Shown: in pieces, positions 2,297-60,040 of the stretch | Layout: the number at the start of each line of letters is the position of its first letter | How positions within the stretch are numbered: the first letter of the stretch is position 1 | From: Nannocystis pusilla | GTDB lineage: Bacteria > Myxococcota_A > Polyangia > Nannocystales > Nannocystaceae | Direction: 5' to 3' (one strand) | Assembly (NCBI RefSeq): GCF_049337375.1 | Contig: NZ_JBMPIV010000001.1 | Length of the DNA stretch: 64,000 nucleotides | The notes under the pieces: generated by a model | Database searches by the model: none | What the model was told of the DNA's origin: nothing | What the model saw: the letters and a program-made list of their open reading frames with translations, nothing else | Position numbers and translations under genes: made by a program

Positions 2297-3550
2297 GTGA
2301 CGAGCGTCTCGCGGCCGGTGCCGGCGGCGGCTCCGTGGGCGGAGTCGATGTTCTCGTTCGGGGTCACCGGCACCAACGGCAAGACGTCGACGACGTGGAT
2401 GCTGGCGGCGGCGGTGCGGGCGGCCGACCTGTCGGTGCTGCGAGTGTCGACGCTCGGGGTCGCGTTCGACGACGAGGCGTGGCCGCGCGGCAAGCGGTTC
2501 ACCGACTTCGTGACCACGCTGGCGCGGGCGCACGAGCGCGGGGCCAGGCACGCGGTGATCGAGACGACCAGCCACGCGCTGGCGCAGGGCTACGCGCGCA
2601 GTTGGCGGTTCGACCTCGGGGTGTTCACCAACCTGTCGGTCGATCACTTCGGCACGCACGGCAGCTGGGAGCACTACCTGGCGGCCAAGGCCCAGCTGTT
2701 CATGCACCTGGGACCCGGGCGCGTGGCGGTGCTCAACGCGGCCGACAAGCACGCGCTGTTCGTCGACCAGGCGATCCCCGCCGACGTGGAGCGGCGGTGG
2801 TTCGCGGCGCCGGGTCGCGGGCCGCGGCTGCGCGCGGCGGACCTCGAGGCCGAGGCGATCGAGGTCGAGGCGACGGGGACGCGGGTGGTGTTGCGCCCGT
2901 CACCGGCCGCGGAGGCGCTCGGCGGGGCGCTCTTCACCAGGATGGTGGGCGAGGTGTTCGCCGAGAACGCGCTGGCGGCCGCGCTCGCGGGGCTCGCGGC
3001 CGGGCTGCCGGGCGAGGCAGTGGCGCGCGGGATCGCCGGCTGCCCGATCGTGCCGGGGCGCTTCGAGGTGCTGGCCCACGGATCCGGCCGGGCGACGATC
3101 GCGGTCGACTACGCGCACTCGCCCGACGCGCTGACGCACACGTGCGCGACGGCGCGGCAGCTCGTGGGGCCGCAGGGGCGGGTGTTCGTGGTGTTCGGCG
3201 CGGGCGGCAACGCGACGCCGGAGAAGCGCGCGCCGATGGGCGCGGCCGTCGGCGCGCTGGCCGACGTGGCGCTGGTGACGAGCGACAACCCGCGCGACGA
3301 GGCGCCGGAGGCGATCGCGGCCGCAGTGGCGGAAGGGCTGCAGGGCGGCCGCGCGGGGTGGTCGATCGTGCTCGACCGCGGGCAGGCGATCGCGGAGGCG
3401 ATCGCGGCGGCCGGGGCCGGCGATGTGGTGGTGATCGCGGGCAAGGGGCACGAGGAGGGGCAGACGGCGCGCGGGCAGACGCGGCCGTTCTCGGACGTCG
3501 CGGAGGTGCGGCGGCTCGTCGAAGGTCGGGACATGCCCGAAGGGACATGA
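2297..3550 (+). CDS. Mur ligase family protein (MurE-like central and C-terminal domains; no N-terminal domain)
   Basis: GVTGTNGKTSTT P-loop, DNPRDE motif and the C-terminal ..AGKGHEEGQ.. motif typical of MurE/MurF. Not in a dcw cluster. Start could be a downstream Met (MFSFGVTG). Confidence 0.7.
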   Translation: MTSVSRPVPAAAPWAESMFSFGVTGTNGKTSTTWMLAAAVRAADLSVLRVSTLGVAFDDEAWPRGKRFTDFVTTLARAHERGARHAVIETTSHALAQGYARSWRFDLGVFTNLSVDHFGTHGSWEHYLAAKAQLFMHLGPGRVAVLNAADKHALFVDQAIPADVERRWFAAPGRGPRLRAADLEAEAIEVEATGTRVVLRPSPAAEALGGALFTRMVGEVFAENALAAALAGLAAGLPGEAVARGIAGCPIVPGRFEVLAHGSGRATIAVDYAHSPDALTHTCATARQLVGPQGRVFVVFGAGGNATPEKRAPMGAAVGALADVALVTSDNPRDEAPEAIAAAVAEGLQGGRAGWSIVLDRGQAIAEAIAAAGAGDVVVIAGKGHEEGQTARGQTRPFSDVAEVRRLVEGRDMPEGT

Positions 3551-3616
3551 CCGCGGGGGCCTGTCGGGGCGGAGGTCGGAGCATGCCCTTTCGTGCATGT
3601 CCCCAGGGACATCCGG
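3528..3616. repeat. CATG-core 14-bp repeat array overlapping the Mur ligase stop codon (gggacatgcccgaa gggacatgaccgcg ... gagcatgccctttcgtgcatgtcccc agggacatcc)
   Basis: Seen in sequence. The last residues of the Mur ligase (..RDMPEGT*) are encoded by repeat units. Confidence 0.7.
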
Positions 3617-3727: not shown

Positions 3728-3840
3728 AAGGACATGTCCATCAGGCCATCCGATCGCGCCGCGCGTCGTGGGGCACGTCCGGGTCCACGAGGGCGACGGC
3801 GCGAGCGAAGGGACATGCCCTCTCGCGCATGTCCCGAGGG
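3728..3840. repeat. two CATG-core repeat clusters (aaaggacatgtccat ... gaagggacatgccctctcgcgcatgtcccgaggg) adjacent to the stop of the LDLa lipoprotein gene
   Basis: Seen in sequence. Confidence 0.6.
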
Positions 3841-3845
3841 TCATC

Positions 3846-4454
3846 TCAGCAGTCGGCCTCGTCGGCGCCGTCGGGGCAGTCCTCGGCCATGTCGCACTTC
3901 CAGGTCGCCGGGATCTCGGTGCCGTTGGTGCAGACGAAGGCCTCGAGGCCGCAGCCGGTGACCTCGTCGGAGTTGTCGAGGCAGTCGGGGACCTCGTCGC
4001 AGGCCCAGGTCGCGGGGATCTCCTTCTTGTCGGTGCAAGTGAAGGCCTCGAGGCCGCAGCCGCTGACCTCGTCGGAGCCGTCGGGACAGTCAGGGTTCTC
4101 GTCGCAGACCCACGCGGGGTTCTCGAGCGCGGTGCCGTCGCTGCAGACGAAGCCGTCGCCGGTGGTGCCCGCGGTGGTGCCCGCGGTGGCCTCGGTCGTG
4201 CTGGTGGGGGCCTCGGTGGTCGTCGGCGCGCTGGTGCCGGTGTCGGTGCCGGTGCCGGTGGCGTCGGTGGTCTCGCCAGCCGTGCCGGTGCTGGTCGTGT
4301 CGTCCGTGGTGCCGGCGGTGCTTTCGGTCGTGGTCGTCTCGGGGCCGATGTTGGTGTCGGAGAGACCGCCGAGGTTGATCGTGCAGCCGGCTGTGGCGAC
4401 GCCCTGACTCATGAGCGCGGCGACGGACAAAAATTTGGCGAGGTCGATGTTCAT
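3846..4454 (-). CDS. lipoprotein with Thr/Gly-rich linker and three LDL-receptor class A-like Cys-rich modules
   Basis: Start MNIDLAKFLSVAALMSQGVATAGC has a signal peptide and lipobox. It is followed by a T/G/S/E-rich low-complexity linker and three modules of the form W(V/A/K)CDExPDCxDGSDE..GCGLEAF(T/V)C, which match the spacing of LDLa ligand-binding repeats. Confidence 0.6.
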   Translation of the reverse strand: MNIDLAKFLSVAALMSQGVATAGCTINLGGLSDTNIGPETTTTESTAGTTDDTTSTGTAGETTDATGTGTDTGTSAPTTTEAPTSTTEATAGTTAGTTGDGFVCSDGTALENPAWVCDENPDCPDGSDEVSGCGLEAFTCTDKKEIPATWACDEVPDCLDNSDEVTGCGLEAFVCTNGTEIPATWKCDMAEDCPDGADEADC

Positions 4455-4522: not shown

Positions 4523-5023
4523 TCAGGTCGGCGCGAGGCGGACGGTGACCTCTGCGCTCGGATCGAAGGGCGAGCCCTTGACGTCGGCGATGCATTTGAC
4601 GACGAGCCGCACCCGCGGATCACGGGTGGCGGCGTTCGGGTCGGGGAAGCCGTTGCGCGCGAGGATGCCGGCGAGGTCGACCTCGCTCACCATCCACGGC
4701 TGGGTGATGACCTGCCCGGGCTTGAGATCGCAAGGCATCTTGAGGCAGCTGTCCGAGTAGCTGACGTTCGGATCGGGATCCTTCTCGGCGCGGGCGAGGT
4801 TCGGCGAGTCGATGTCGTCCTTCTTGATGTACAGCCACACCTCGTACTTGGTCGCCAGCAAGGTGCACTCCTGCTGCGCGGTGATCACCATGGTGCCCTT
4901 GAGGACGGAGTCGGTGACCGGGAAGGTGGCGGTCTCCGCCGGTTGACGCTCGATGACCGTGATGGCGACGCTCGCCATGTTCTTGCCGCCGAGGAACTGC
5001 TTGGCCTTGTCGAAGAATCCCAT
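4523..5023 (-). CDS. hypothetical protein
   Basis: ORF 4523-5197. Start placed at the internal Met (MGFFDKAKQFLGG...). Coding-like composition, no recognisable family. Confidence 0.4.
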   Translation of the reverse strand: MGFFDKAKQFLGGKNMASVAITVIERQPAETATFPVTDSVLKGTMVITAQQECTLLATKYEVWLYIKKDDIDSPNLARAEKDPDPNVSYSDSCLKMPCDLKPGQVITQPWMVSEVDLAGILARNGFPDPNAATRDPRVRLVVKCIADVKGSPFDPSAEVTVRLAPT

Positions 5024-6296: not shown

Positions 6297-6540
6297 TCCT
6301 GTCGACGACGGCCGCCCCGGGCGGCGCGTCGCGACTGTCACGAACGGTTGTGGACGATGCAGTCGACGACGGCCGCTGATGCGGAGCGTCGCGGGCTGTC
6401 ACGAGCGGTGGGTTGTGGGCGATGCAGTCGACGGCGGCCGCTGATGCGGAGCGTCGCGGGCTGTCACGAGCGGTGGGTTGTGGGCGATGCGGTCGACGAC
6501 GGCCGCTGATGCGGAGCGTCGCGGGCTGTCACGAGCGACG
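6297..6540. repeat. tandem repeat, about 65-bp unit x about 3.7 copies (gcagtcgacgacggccgctgatgcggagcgtcgcgggctgtcacgagcggtgggttgtgggcgat)
   Basis: Direct tandem copies are readable in the sequence and in the repeating spurious ORF translations (..TAADAERRGLSRAVGCGRC..). Lies between the tetR stop and the AKR start. Confidence 0.85.
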
Positions 6541-7521: not shown

Positions 7522-8871
7522 TCAGCGGCCGCTGGCGGGACCCGGGCGGAACGAGTCGACGAAGCGGCGCAGCTCGTCGGCGCGCTCGCGGGCCTGCGCG
7601 CGCGGGACCTCGCCGACGATCACGCAGGTGGCGTCGGCGACGGTGACCGCGCGGACGAGGCCGTGGGCCTTGTCGGTGGTGAGCGTGCCCTCGAGGCCGG
7701 CGGTGCCCTCGACCTCGATCGCACGCACGTCCTGGAGGCGCATGGTGTCGACGATGCCGCGCAGCTCGTCGGCGGGCGTGCGGCCGGCGACAGGCTTGGC
7801 CCTCGCGCTGCACGTGACGAGCCGCGAGACGTCGCCGGGCTGCTTGAGCGCGAGCATGCGGGTGGTCATGGCGACACCGTCGGCGGTGATGAAGCTCTGG
7901 CGCTGCGCGTTGGGCCGCCGGGGGAAGACGGCGGAGAAGCCCACGTCGGGGAAGGCCCAGCGGACCTGCGAGCCCTCGCGCCCGACCTCGACCGCCTGGA
8001 GGGCTCCGGCCGCGACCGCGGCGAGCACGGCCTCCTGCTGCTCGAGGTGCTCGCGGAGCTCCTCGGCGAGGGCGTCGACGCGGGGGTGCGGCTCGCGATC
8101 GGGGGCGAAGGCGGTGCGCAACGCGGCGAGCTCGGTGGCGGGGACGTCGGCGGCTGCGAGGCGATCGGCGAGGTCGAGGATCCGGTCGCGCTCCTCGGGG
8201 AGGAACCAGGGAGCGACGAGGTCGCCGAGCGGAGCGAAGGTGGCGACCGCGGCGGCAGGGGCGATGGTGTCCGAAAGGGAGAGGGCGCTGGCGAGGACGT
8301 CGTGGACGCCGCGCGCGAGGTGAAAGCGGGCCTCGACGAAGCTGCGGCGAGAGGCGTCGTCGCTCGCGAGTCGGTCGACACGAAGGGCGGACTCTTTAAA
8401 AAAGGCCGCGGCGACGGCGAGGTACTCGTGTCCGGATTCGCCGCGCGTGAGCGCCCGGGCGGCGTAGAGCTGCAAGATGTCGGCGAGGGCCAGGTGCAGC
8501 GCGGTGAGCTCGTCGGGGTTGGCGGTCTTGCGAACGGCGGCCGCGACGGCGTCGAGAGCGACGAGGTGCCGCAGCCATTCGGCGTCGGGTCCGTCGAGGC
8601 GCGGCAGCAGCTCGGGGCGCTCGCGCTCGAGGCGGACGAAGGCGTCGCGGACTCTTTGATAGTCCTGCGCGGTCCAGGGGGCGTCGGCGGCCGGGAGGTC
8701 GTAGGTCCGCCGTAGCTCGCTCGTCGGCTCGTCCTGCGGGGCGTCGACGCTGGCGGGAGCCGTGGTCTCGGCGCTGCGCCGGCAGGCCGCGAGCAGGACG
8801 AGGAGGAGCAACAGCCTTCGACCCGCGCCTTGCGAGCGACGGCGCGGCGCGAACGGGATCGAAGCGAGCAT
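7522..8871 (-). CDS. hypothetical lipoprotein
   Basis: ORF 7522-8934. Start at MLASIPFAPRRR..LLLLLVLLAAC (signal peptide plus lipobox). Alpha-helical Ala/Leu-rich sequence, no family recognised. Confidence 0.55.
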   Translation of the reverse strand: MLASIPFAPRRRSQGAGRRLLLLLVLLAACRRSAETTAPASVDAPQDEPTSELRRTYDLPAADAPWTAQDYQRVRDAFVRLERERPELLPRLDGPDAEWLRHLVALDAVAAAVRKTANPDELTALHLALADILQLYAARALTRGESGHEYLAVAAAFFKESALRVDRLASDDASRRSFVEARFHLARGVHDVLASALSLSDTIAPAAAVATFAPLGDLVAPWFLPEERDRILDLADRLAAADVPATELAALRTAFAPDREPHPRVDALAEELREHLEQQEAVLAAVAAGALQAVEVGREGSQVRWAFPDVGFSAVFPRRPNAQRQSFITADGVAMTTRMLALKQPGDVSRLVTCSARAKPVAGRTPADELRGIVDTMRLQDVRAIEVEGTAGLEGTLTTDKAHGLVRAVTVADATCVIVGEVPRAQARERADELRRFVDSFRPGPASGR

Positions 8872-8992
8872 CTGCGATGGACGATACAACGGCCGGGCCG
8901 GAGGCGCACGGACGAGGCACGCGAGGTGCCACAAAGCGGCGAGGCCAGGCGCTCACGGGCGGGACGCAGCGCGAGCGGGACGCGGGACGCCA

Positions 8993-12313: not shown

Positions 12314-12392
12314 CGGGGCATGTCTCGGAGGACATGTCCCGGCGGCGCGGCGCTTGGGGACATGTCTCGGAGGACATGTCCTGCGCGCCCTG
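12314..12392. repeat. CATG-core 14-bp repeat array (ggggcatgtctcggaggacatgtccc ... ggggacatgtctcggaggacatgtcct) abutting the rlmE stop
   Basis: Seen in sequence. Confidence 0.8.
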
Positions 12393-19418: not shown

Positions 19419-19490
19419 CGGGACATGTCCTCGGGGGCATGTCTGTAAGGGCATGCGCTGGCGCGCATGTCCATGAGGACATGTCGTCTC
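19419..19490. repeat. CATG-core 14-bp repeat array (gggacatgtcctcg ggggcatgtctgta agggcatgcgctgg cgcgcatgtccatg aggacatgtcgtct)
   Basis: Five phased units, seen in sequence. Confidence 0.85.
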
Positions 19491-33530: not shown

Positions 33531-35114
33531 TCAGCGCGGCTCGTCGTCGGGGCAGACGAAGCGCTCGAAGCGGCGGGCGAGCACCGAGTCGGGCAGGCGC
33601 GCGGCCAGGCGCTGGGCGGCGGCCGCGGCGTCGGCGAGGCGGCCTTGCAGGCACAGGAGCTCGACCCCGGCGGCCTCGCGGGCGTCGAGGAGGGCGCCGC
33701 TCGGGAACTGGCGCGCGTGGGCGTCGAGGAGCTGGGCGGCGCCCGCCGGGTCGCGGGCGTCGAGGCGGGCGCGGGCGCGGTCGAGGAGGCCGACCTCGCG
33801 GGCGAGGTCGTCGCGGGCGGGCGAGCGCGCGGATGTCTCTCGGGACAGCAGCTGATCGTAGGCCGGGCGGGTGAGGGAAGCGGGGGAGGCTGTCCTCGGG
33901 GATAGGTCGGGCGCGGGGCTCGGCGACAGGGGGGCGGTCGCGCGGGTCCACAGGTCGGCGATCTGCGCGCGCAGGTGGGCGAACGAGAACGGGGAGGTGG
34001 GGAGCTGGAGCGCGGCCGCGGGCGAGGCTGGCTCTCGGGACATGTCGGCGGTCACCGGGGAGGCTGGCTCTCGGGACATGTCGGAGGTCACCCGGGATGC
34101 TGGCTCTCGGGACATGTCGGAGATCGGTCGATGGACTGTCTTTCGAGACATGTCCTCGCGCGAGGGATAGGCTGTCTCTCGGGTCGCGTCGGAGGGCCGG
34201 AGAGAGGCTGTCTCTCGAGACGCGCCGGAAGACCGGGGAGAAGCTGTCTCGCGGGACACGTCCGAGGGCCGGGGAGAGGCTGTCTCTCGGGCCGCGTCGA
34301 CGGGCCGGGGAGAGGCTGTCTCGCGGGACATGCCGCCGGTCGCGCGGGCGCTGGCTGTCCTCGCGGACAGGTCCTCGACCTGGGCGGCGGCCCGGCCCGG
34401 GGCCTGGCGGGGGGCGACCGCGACGACGGTGGTCGCGCCGGCGACGACGAGGGTGGTCATGACGCCGGCGCGCGCGGTCGTCCATGCGGCGGCGATCGTG
34501 GCGAGCTTGCCGGGGCCGAACAGCGGGACCATCACGGCCCAGGTGCGCGAGGCGGCGCCTTCCGGGGGGGCCTCGCGGCGGCGGGTTTCGGCGACCTCGG
34601 CGGCCAGCAGCTCGGGGCTGGCGGCCAGCTCGAGCAGGCGGGCGCGCGCGAGCCGGAGCCGCGAGTAGACGGTGTTGAGCGGCAGCTCGAGCTCGGCGGC
34701 GATCTCGGGGCCGCTCATGCCGAGCAGCTCGGTCAGCTCCCACACCTCGCGGGTGCCGCGAGGCAGGCCGGCGAGCAGGCGCTCGAGCAGGCGGGCGGCG
34801 TCGTGGCGCTCCTGCGGGGCCTCGCCGACGTGGCCGGTGAGGTCGCCGAGGGCGGCGATCCGGCGGGTCCGGCGGGCGACGCCGCGGTGCCAGTGCGAGG
34901 CGACGCGGCGGGTGACGCCGTACAGCCAGGCGCGCGCCGAGACCTGGTAGTGGACCTGGTCGAAGCGGCGGTAGGCGGTGAGGAAGACGTCCTGGACCAC
35001 GTCGTCGCGGGCGGCCGCGGGGACGCCGAAGTGCTTCGCGGCCGACCACACGAAGTGGAACTCGCGGTCGTAGATGGCGCGAAAACGCGCTTCCCGGTCG
35101 GTGGCGAGCAGCAT
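33531..35114 (-). CDS. ECF sigma-70 factor fused in-frame to a transmembrane anti-sigma-like C-terminal region carrying a 12-aa tandem repeat
   Basis: Start MLLATDREARFRAIYDREF. Sigma region 2 (DDVVQDVFLTAYRRFD) and region 4 (GLPRGTREVWELTELLGMSGPEIAAELELPLNTVYSRL). Then a TM segment (LATIAAAWTTARAGVMTTLVVAGATTVVAVA), about 8.5 copies of a 12-aa repeat (S/TRETASPRPSDA -> DMSREPASPVTA) and an Ala/Leu-rich C-terminal domain. Confidence 0.7.
   Translation of the reverse strand: MLLATDREARFRAIYDREFHFVWSAAKHFGVPAAARDDVVQDVFLTAYRRFDQVHYQVSARAWLYGVTRRVASHWHRGVARRTRRIAALGDLTGHVGEAPQERHDAARLLERLLAGLPRGTREVWELTELLGMSGPEIAAELELPLNTVYSRLRLARARLLELAASPELLAAEVAETRRREAPPEGAASRTWAVMVPLFGPGKLATIAAAWTTARAGVMTTLVVAGATTVVAVAPRQAPGRAAAQVEDLSARTASARATGGMSRETASPRPVDAARETASPRPSDVSRETASPRSSGASRETASLRPSDATRETAYPSREDMSRKTVHRPISDMSREPASRVTSDMSREPASPVTADMSREPASPAAALQLPTSPFSFAHLRAQIADLWTRATAPLSPSPAPDLSPRTASPASLTRPAYDQLLSRETSARSPARDDLAREVGLLDRARARLDARDPAGAAQLLDAHARQFPSGALLDAREAAGVELLCLQGRLADAAAAAQRLAARLPDSVLARRFERFVCPDDEPR
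34022..34335. repeat. 36-bp tandem repeat x about 8.5 inside the sigma/anti-sigma CDS (..ggctggctctcgggacatgtcggcggtcaccgggga..), each unit containing the gggacatgtc core
   Basis: Seen in sequence. Encodes the 12-aa peptide repeat. Confidence 0.85.
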
Positions 35115-59979: not shown

Positions 59980-60040
59980 GGGACATGTCCGAACGGGCAT
60001 GGCCGAACGGGCATGTCCCGACGAGCATGCTCGATCAGGC
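59978..60040. repeat. CATG-core 14-bp repeat array (agggacatgtccga acgggcatggccga acgggcatgtcccg acgagcatgctcga) starting at the CAP gene stop
   Basis: Four phased units, seen in sequence. Confidence 0.85.

Follow-up and report, generated by a model that had tools for sequence, protein, structure and literature searches.

The 64,000-nucleotide stretch of the Nannocystis pusilla genome analyzed here (contig NZ_JBMPIV010000001.1 of assembly GCF_049337375.1; hereafter the window, with a G+C content of 72%) carries, at positions 3846-4454, the gene of a small envelope protein, probably lipid-anchored, whose C-terminal 102 residues are, by sequence homology, three head-to-tail class A modules of the low-density lipoprotein receptor type (LDLa modules) in a reduced, four-cysteine form. 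LDLa modules are a textbook metazoan ligand-binding unit, involved in processes ranging from lipoprotein uptake to virus entry and complement. The explanation that we favor overall, and consider fairly likely, is that the gene encodes a genuine Nannocystis lipoprotein in which three calcium-cage LDLa modules are carried on a stalk and serve a binding role.

Four-cysteine LDLa modules and their predicted fold

The interval is occupied by exactly one coding sequence (CDS), on the minus strand, which runs from an ATG at 4452-4454 to a stop codon at 3846-3848 and specifies a 202-amino-acid (aa) product in four parts, namely a signal peptide with a lipobox-like end, Cys24, a 76-residue spacer and three contiguous modules. 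The G+C content at third codon positions (GC3) is 0.95, and codon choice is host-like, with GAC, GAG, TGC, ACC and GGC used almost exclusively. Mechanically, the open reading frame (ORF) can be followed back to 4595, in an extension that overlaps the upstream gene; we rejected this longer frame because the extension is broken or divergent in orthologues, and the start was fixed at the ATG given above because every orthologue begins M(N/K)IDL. On the opposite strand, a 192-aa ORF (3829-4407, + strand) has an equally high GC3 of 0.94, and were it the real gene, the LDLa reading would be an antisense artifact. Its product, however, is a low-complexity Ser/Val/Pro string, whereas the minus-strand product matches the LDLa family with an E-value of 9e-25 and presents invariant Cys and Asp columns. 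We therefore rejected the plus-strand ORF as a shadow of the minus-strand CDS, with third positions in common, and regard the chance that it is the gene as negligible.

Searching the whole protein against Pfam gave a match to PF00057 (Ldl_recept_a) of 87 bits (E 9.3e-25) in three stretches, and each module alone also exceeded the gathering score of 24.1 bits, with 32.7, 38.8 and 40.6 bits for modules 1, 2 and 3, respectively; these alignments cover profile positions 6/7-37 of 37 and so leave out the Cys1 region. In the whole-protein match, HMMER placed residues 168-202 on profile positions 3-37, with C168 of module 2 taking the position of the profile Cys1. A first-pass annotation of the same DNA had proposed LDLa-like modules on a lipoprotein-type protein, and this was borne out; the profile search suggested there, in which the lack of a hit would have spoken against the proposal, returned instead a strong match. 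Likewise, phmmer against PDB sequences retrieved megalin/LRP2, VLDLR, LDLR, LRP4, ApoER2, CD320, LDLRAD3 and factor I, with an independent E-value of 3e-12 for the best single stretch. No NCBIfam model matched the protein, and the core LDLa motif had no second occurrence in the six-frame translation of the window.

The modules repeat with a DNA period of 105 nucleotides (nt), or 35 residues, and four Cys in each of the three modules bring the protein to 13 Cys, the last Cys of module 3 being the C-terminal residue. Canonical LDLa modules are defined by six Cys and three disulfides (C1-C3, C2-C5 and C4-C6) within about 40 residues (PMC8239462, PMC10074552), a framework that these four-Cys, 35-residue modules do not have. 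The count of four against six had been given correctly from the start, and the absent residues could be identified as one disulfide pair, Cys1 and Cys3. In place of Cys3, module 1 has Ala and the other two modules have Glu, while the Cys1 position holds T in module 1 and a shared Cys in modules 2 and 3, where it is filled by the final Cys of the preceding module (C-x4-F-x-C) with no linker in between. The spacing from C6 to C2 is six residues at 12/12 junctions of the Nannocystis family. The 26-residue string first used to describe the repeat fits the passage from module 1 to module 2 fully and that from module 2 to module 3 with D-N-S in place of D-G-S; it did not hold for module 3, which is shorter at its C-terminal end and reads DGADE.

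Calcium coordination was assessed by alignment to module 5 of LDLR (LR5), whose sequence was checked against 1AJJ (37/37 positions) and 1N7D (residues 175-211). In the LR5 crystal structure, Fass et al. (1997) reportedly found Ca2+ coordinated by the backbone oxygens of two residues (W193 and G198) and by four side chains (D196, D200, D206 and E207). Matched in 3/3 Nannocystis modules are F181, C183 (Cys2), W193, C195 (Cys4), D196, D200, C201 (Cys5), D203, D206, E207 and the terminal Cys6; thus, all four Ca side-chain ligands are present, and the acidic cage of the first-pass annotation aligns with LR5 one-to-one in its side-chain positions.

An AlphaFold2 model of residues 100-202, built from a 92-sequence alignment, had a predicted local distance difference test (pLDDT) score of 94.5 and a predicted template modeling (pTM) score of 0.77, with module 1 at a pLDDT of about 90 or higher. 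Each module is modeled as a beta-hairpin with short helical turns, and the model agrees with the LDLa fold, which is defined by an N-terminal beta-hairpin and a C-terminal Ca-binding loop with short helical turns. Foldseek against the PDB returned 49 matches at E <= 0.001, all of them containing LDLa modules (megalin, LDLR, VLDLR, CD320, ApoER2, TMPRSS6 and factor I), so that the structure prediction proposed earlier as a check yielded a confident model whose significant matches are LDLa tandem modules only. Whole-model TM scores were low (about 0.3-0.4), which is what a relative module placement unlike that of the receptors would give. With an alignment of six sequences, the full-length AlphaFold2 model reached a pLDDT of 34. 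The missing linkers and the pTM of 0.77 suggest that the three modules abut, probably as a stiff rod and not like beads strung together.

By profile and predicted fold, the modules are homologous to the LA repeats of LDLR, VLDLR, LRP1/2 (megalin), ApoER2, CD320 and LDLRAD3, which likewise stand in tandem, and share with them the core F-x-C...W-x-C-D-x3-D-C-x-D-x-S-D-E-x(2,3)-C, with the four Ca side chains and the aromatic residue in place. The Nannocystis protein probably also shares the Ca-dependent docking of basic side chains on an acidic/aromatic surface (PMC8239462, PMC10074552). It differs in having four Cys instead of six and one disulfide fewer, with Glu invariant at Cys3 in modules 2 and 3, and in lacking linkers, which in LRP1 are flexible and 3-10 residues long (PMC8239462). 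Unlike the animal receptors, it has a lipoprotein-type N-terminus, no EGF, beta-propeller or transmembrane parts, and no acidic residue at +5 after the aromatic. The protein is thus an LDLa homologue that fails one defining feature, the six-Cys, three-disulfide framework, which makes it structurally instructive, if not very surprising.

Orthologues and the wider bacterial class

Scanning one genome per GTDB species, we found orthologues at 73-97% identity in Nannocystis sp. RBIL2, N. pusilla, N. bainbridge, N. exedens, N. punicea and N. radixulma, together with two Nannocystis metagenome-assembled genomes (MAGs) and one Polyangia MAG with a four-module copy; the distribution check proposed earlier thus placed the gene in every Nannocystis species sampled, as well as in related MAGs. 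Protein databases added Nannocystis sp. ILAH1 (95%) and several metagenome sequences, while a scan of viral contigs returned no relatives. Complete relatives contain 13 or 17 Cys, made up of a single N-terminal one and exactly four in each module. In an alignment of 12 orthologues, all 12 module Cys, all 15 acidic cage residues, Glu145 and Glu180 are invariant, and the aromatic residue is W/F in module 1 and W/Y in module 2. The modules of the orthologues are 62-91% identical to those of the window, leaving aside the near-identical strain L001, which reaches 92-100% in all regions. Relative to four Nannocystis species, the synonymous divergence (dS) of the modules is 0.08-0.11, equal to that of neighboring genes, and the nonsynonymous divergence (dN) is several-fold above that of the neighbors.

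Two observations concern individual database entries. The orthologue of N. pusilla Na p29 (L002 7992-8600) has a disrupted N-terminus, its reading frame lacking MNIDLAKF as a result of either a frameshift or a sequencing error. P0006 and P0014 appear to be chimeric gene predictions from short metagenome contigs; in P0006, the N-terminus of a Mur ligase is fused to three LDLa modules.

Beyond the orthologues, profile and single-sequence searches showed that the four-Cys module recurs in hundreds of bacterial, mostly metagenomic, proteins. The first statement that LDLa-like modules are rare in bacteria therefore holds for named genomes but does not extend to metagenomes. We classified junctions between adjacent cores as four-Cys type when one Cys lies between them and as six-Cys type when at least three do. 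Among 117 relatives of the metagenomic protein P0009, 309/309 classified junctions were of the four-Cys type and none of the six-Cys type, whereas the metazoan matches of the same searches were of the six-Cys type. Of these relatives, 75/117 pass the lipobox rule described below, and two, from Myxococcota and Deltaproteobacteria MAGs, are named "LDL receptor domain-containing protein" by NCBI. The small families P0023, P0031 and P0056 have textbook lipoboxes followed directly by four-Cys modules and lie on contigs of 70-73% G+C among ordinary bacterial genes.

P0009-type proteins have the same four-Cys modules, mostly bear lipoboxes, occur on high-GC bacterial contigs where checked and are uncharacterized. 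Unlike the Nannocystis protein, they possess an extra N-terminal Cys-rich helical domain and four to six modules, mostly with a C6-to-C2 spacing of 4-5 residues, and no Thr-rich stalk. The Nannocystis family constitutes an orthologous group apart from these, distinguished by a conserved signal peptide (KIDLxKFL...MSQG) and by its fixed position in the genome. Elsewhere in the class, three consecutive four-Cys LDLa genes (104, 163 and 207 aa) occur on a metagenomic contig of 71% G+C (L012 5508-7197 and L013 959-2648); the first two have lipoboxes, and a gene with a Dickkopf_N match lies a few kilobases away. This triplet is a local expansion of the four-Cys module class.

A literature search for bacterial, myxobacterial or Nannocystis LDLa modules found no relevant paper. 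The Nannocystis protein is accordingly one orthologous group within a sizeable bacterial class that databases tag as PF00057 yet that is unstudied; it is real, but not unique. A bolder proposal, which we put forward as a long shot, is that the two-disulfide, linker-less module represents a distinct, Myxococcota-centered prokaryotic lineage rather than a degenerate animal copy, either ancestral to the six-Cys metazoan module or derived from an ancient transfer that radiated in predatory bacteria, and that it builds rigid, fast-evolving, Ca-dependent, lysine-grabbing surface rods that recognize prey or kin.

Predicted membrane anchoring, proposed role and rival explanations

The N-terminus was judged with a PS51257-type lipobox rule, written as [LIVMFWSTAG](2)-[LIVMFYSTAGCQ]-[AGS]-C at residues 15-35, with no charged residue in the six preceding positions and K or R among the first seven residues. 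The segment LMSQGVATAG|C, which ends at residue 24, agrees with this rule, K7 being present, as do 7/15 of the family relatives checked. An N-terminal Cys is kept in 15/15 relatives, at positions 20-25 in the complete ones and also in truncated entries, and signal-peptide identity to the window is 58-96% in orthologues other than L001. The spacer (residues 25-100) contains 31 Thr (41%), 12 Gly, 8 Ala, 6 Asp, 5 Ser and 5 Glu among its 76 residues; it varies in length, is 26-74% identical in orthologues other than L001 (92%) and has a pLDDT below 50 in the full-length AlphaFold2 model. The lipobox and the Thr/Gly-rich linker of the first-pass annotation have thus both held up. In Myxococcus xanthus, Lys at +2 is an inner-membrane signal and Ala at +7 an extracellular matrix (ECM) signal (PMC3222651), and the predicted mature N-terminus, CTINLGG, has neither; by these rules, the protein would be sorted to the outer membrane.

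On this basis, we propose that the precursor would leave the cytoplasm by the Sec pathway, receive its lipid on Cys24 and be processed by signal peptidase II (LspA), and that it would reach the outer membrane in the absence of the M. xanthus +2 Lys retention signal, where the disordered Thr-rich spacer of about 76 residues would hold the rod off the membrane. Each module would bind one Ca2+ through the backbone oxygens of the aromatic residue and of the residue at +5 and through four side chains, those of D(+3), D(+7), D(+13) and E(+14). Disulfides Cys2-Cys5 and Cys4-Cys6 would staple each module, in which the N-terminal hairpin lacks its Cys1-Cys3 bond. Basic, Lys/Arg-rich ligands may then be captured on the acidic/aromatic face of the modules in a Ca2+-dependent manner, the three sites together providing avidity, as in receptors of the LDLR family. 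The paradigm of Ca-dependent binding by LDLR-family modules (PMC8239462, PMC10074552) makes Ca-dependent ligand binding, already suggested in the first-pass annotation, a reasonable inference from homology, while the more specific function of avidity-based capture of basic ligands is one that we offer tentatively, as possible but somewhat short of probable. Metazoan-type, metal-dependent adhesion modules on myxobacterial outer-membrane lipoproteins have a precedent in CglB (von Willebrand A domain) and CglD (integrin-like) (PMC9946355, bioRxiv 10.1101/2023.10.19.562135). The likeness is one of analogy only; the folds are unrelated, gliding roles are demonstrated for CglB and CglD, and nothing ties the Nannocystis gene to motility genes.

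Several observations weigh against this picture of an anchored, ligand-binding protein, and most of them lend themselves to rival explanations. Lipidation, membrane face (cell surface or periplasm, and with it the surface anchoring of the first-pass annotation), Ca binding and ligand binding are all predicted steps, and the disulfide pairing, the Ca geometry and the rigid rod are drawn from homology, pLDDT and pTM. At -3, the lipobox has Thr instead of Leu, which is off the narrower L-[AST]-[GA]-C consensus (PMC3222651); the remaining relatives fail the PS51257-type rule, either through N or Q at -3, as in orthologues with NTAC or QSGC, or through too short a stretch from K7 to the Cys; and an A-x-A motif immediately precedes G23-C24, such that signal peptidase I might cut at A-T-A|G. 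The same domains could then belong to a non-lipoprotein, cut by signal peptidase I (for instance, after A-T-A) and released as a soluble protein into the periplasm or the medium, with Cys24 free or disulfide-bonded to another molecule. We find this improbable, since a Cys stands at exactly this place in 15/15 relatives although the flanking residues vary, since without lipidation Cys24 would be an odd, unpaired thirteenth Cys, and since most proteins of the wider four-Cys class have canonical lipoboxes.

The role of the modules may be questioned as well. They might store, buffer or sense Ca2+, or form an inert, disulfide-stabilized envelope spacer, with no specific macromolecular ligand, a reading we consider unlikely even though only the scaffold of Cys and Ca ligands is invariant. 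The third acidic residue of the receptor Lys pocket, at +5 after the aromatic, is replaced by N, V or A, and the module-3 aromatic, like other surface positions, varies (W/F/A/G/S among the 12 orthologues), while in LRP1 lacking the module aromatic, RAP binding is abolished (PMC8239462). The dN/dS of the modules is high, at 0.5-0.9 against 0.04-0.23 in typA, trpC and the upstream gene, values that are read relative to neighbors only, the extreme GC3 bias making absolute values unreliable; and neither in Nannocystis nor in the neighborhoods of distant relatives did we find a conserved partner gene hinting at a ligand. However, three Ca sites per molecule make a poor buffer, the aromatic is W, F or Y in modules 1 and 2 of all orthologues, copy number and stalk architecture are typical of binding proteins, and fast surface evolution is equally expected of a ligand-facing surface. 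Moreover, modules 1 and 2 have an invariant Glu at +4 that might stand in for the absent +5 acidic residue. A frozen scaffold among otherwise fast-evolving positions fits either diversifying or simply relaxed selection. As for origin, the overwhelmingly metazoan distribution of LDLa and the roughly 40-45% identity of the modules to megalin/LDLR modules could suggest a eukaryote-like effector or mimic, recently acquired horizontally from a eukaryote, rather than a native module. A GC3 of 0.95 with host-like codon usage and a fixed core-genome site between the trp/murE-like genes and typA across Nannocystis species argue against such a transfer, and the uniformly four-Cys junctions of the 117 further bacterial proteins point to a distinct, established bacterial lineage, making recent acquisition very improbable. 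The gene is vertically inherited and native to Nannocystis.

Feature coordinates, genomic context and significance

Table 1. Positions in the window of the LDLa-module gene, the parts of its product and the palindromic motif, with the evidence for each.
Feature	Position	Strand	Evidence
LDLa-module lipoprotein, complete CDS (202 codons + stop)	3846..4454	-	ORF and translation, GC3 0.95, orthologue-fixed start, PF00057 87 bits
Signal peptide, residues 1-23 (MNIDLAKFLSVAALMSQGVATAG)	4386..4454	-	PS51257-type lipoprotein rule passed together with Cys24
Cys24, predicted lipidated +1 cysteine; 13th, otherwise unpaired Cys	4383..4385	-	N-terminal Cys in relatives
Thr/Gly/Ala/Asp/Glu-rich low-complexity spacer, residues 25-100	4155..4382	-	Composition, low identity, low pLDDT
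LDLa-like module 1, residues 101-133; C104, C117, C123, C133; cage D118, D122, D125, D128, E129; aromatic W115	4056..4154	-	32.7 bits alone
LDLa-like module 2, residues 134-168; C140, C152, C158, C168; cage D153, D157, D160, D163, E164; aromatic W150; Glu145 at Cys3 position	3951..4055	-	38.8 bits alone
LDLa-like module 3, residues 169-202; C175, C187, C193, C202; cage D188, D192, D195, D198, E199; aromatic W185; Glu180 at Cys3 position	3849..3950	-	40.6 bits alone
Palindrome GGGACATGC-N8-GCATGTCCC, 9 nt beyond the LDLa stop codon	3810..3837	.	Inverted repeats, RNA fold
GGGACATG(Y)CC motif sites	3528-3603, 3729-3740, 3810-3835, 12316-12382, 19420-19431, 51806, 55553, 59980-60019, 62781, others		

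The plus strand next to the LDLa gene carries trpD-trpC-trpF and then a murE-like ligase gene, convergent with the LDLa gene, while on the minus strand the genes upstream of it are a 166-aa gene, an aldo-keto reductase gene, a 470-aa gene and typA. This order is maintained in six Nannocystis species; in the distant loci L008, L009, L014 and L015, only the convergent murE-like gene still adjoins, and the upstream neighbors differ. The LDLa gene is apparently a monocistronic member of the core genome. The murE-like ligase (2297-3550, + strand) belongs to the MurE subfamily and is without the N-terminal domain, its match to TIGR01085 (288 bits) covering no more than profile positions 88-471. Although it is the sole neighbor conserved across the family, we rejected it as a functional link because of its convergent orientation and housekeeping homology. 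In the metagenomic locus L014 (5128-10500), the same ligase is clustered with an amidohydrolase, a YcaO protein and an 83-aa peptide ending ...VYPFTCC, which suggests a pathway there of the type that yields peptides made on ribosomes and then modified post-translationally (RiPP).

The 166-aa gene (4523-5023, minus strand; MGFFDKAKQFLGG...) lies 69 nt upstream of the LDLa gene and is 92-100% identical across Nannocystis species. Its product, without a signal peptide or any match in Pfam, NCBIfam or the PDB, is an uncharacterized cytoplasmic domain from a small family, for which 1.84 billion proteins yielded only 67 representative clusters. C-terminal SUKH-1 (SMI1/KNR4) or HEAT+BRCT extensions occur in a few of its members. 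As an operon partner it was rejected, being adjacent only within Nannocystis and absent beside the orthologues in L007, L008, L009 and L014. The 470-aa ORF (7522-8934, minus strand) has good coding statistics and no Pfam or NCBIfam match, and at 58-93% identity across Nannocystis it is the fastest-diverging of the syntenic neighbors.

A promoter and terminator scan found nothing near the LDLa gene, and no T-tract terminator at 3810..3837, where a palindrome is located. This palindrome is one copy of a dispersed motif and, with some uncertainty, a possible hairpin at the transcript end. The dispersed palindromic motif, GGGACATG(Y)CC, has 53 matches in the window against 2.6 expected (up to one mismatch), often as hairpin pairs in intergenic spacers and with several copies in the 295-nt convergent spacer between the murE-like and LDLa genes; it looks like an element of Nannocystis of the repetitive extragenic palindromic (REP) or bacterial interspersed mosaic element (BIME) type. 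Elsewhere in the window, a tandem array at 34014-34329 consists of 8.8 copies of a 36-nt unit (75% matches) that contain GGGAC(A/G)(T/C)GTC; as its repeats are contiguous, it does not resemble clustered regularly interspaced short palindromic repeats (CRISPR). In the spacer upstream of the aldo-keto reductase gene, 3.7 copies of a 65-nt unit (6301-6537; 88-96% matches) give rise to repeated spurious ORFs.

In practical terms, the firm ground ends at domain homology, and proteins of this kind already carry the PF00057 tag in databases. Even so, a natural bacterial LDLa module that keeps the Ca cage while lacking one disulfide and the linkers would reveal the minimal determinants of the fold, and bacterial four-Cys modules would offer a compact, bacterially expressible scaffold for Ca-switchable binders. 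The bacterial four-Cys form would also bear on the origin of the LDLa domain, as myxobacteria figure often in discussions of exchange with early eukaryotes. For the biology of Nannocystis itself, the analysis flags a conserved and rapidly evolving envelope protein.

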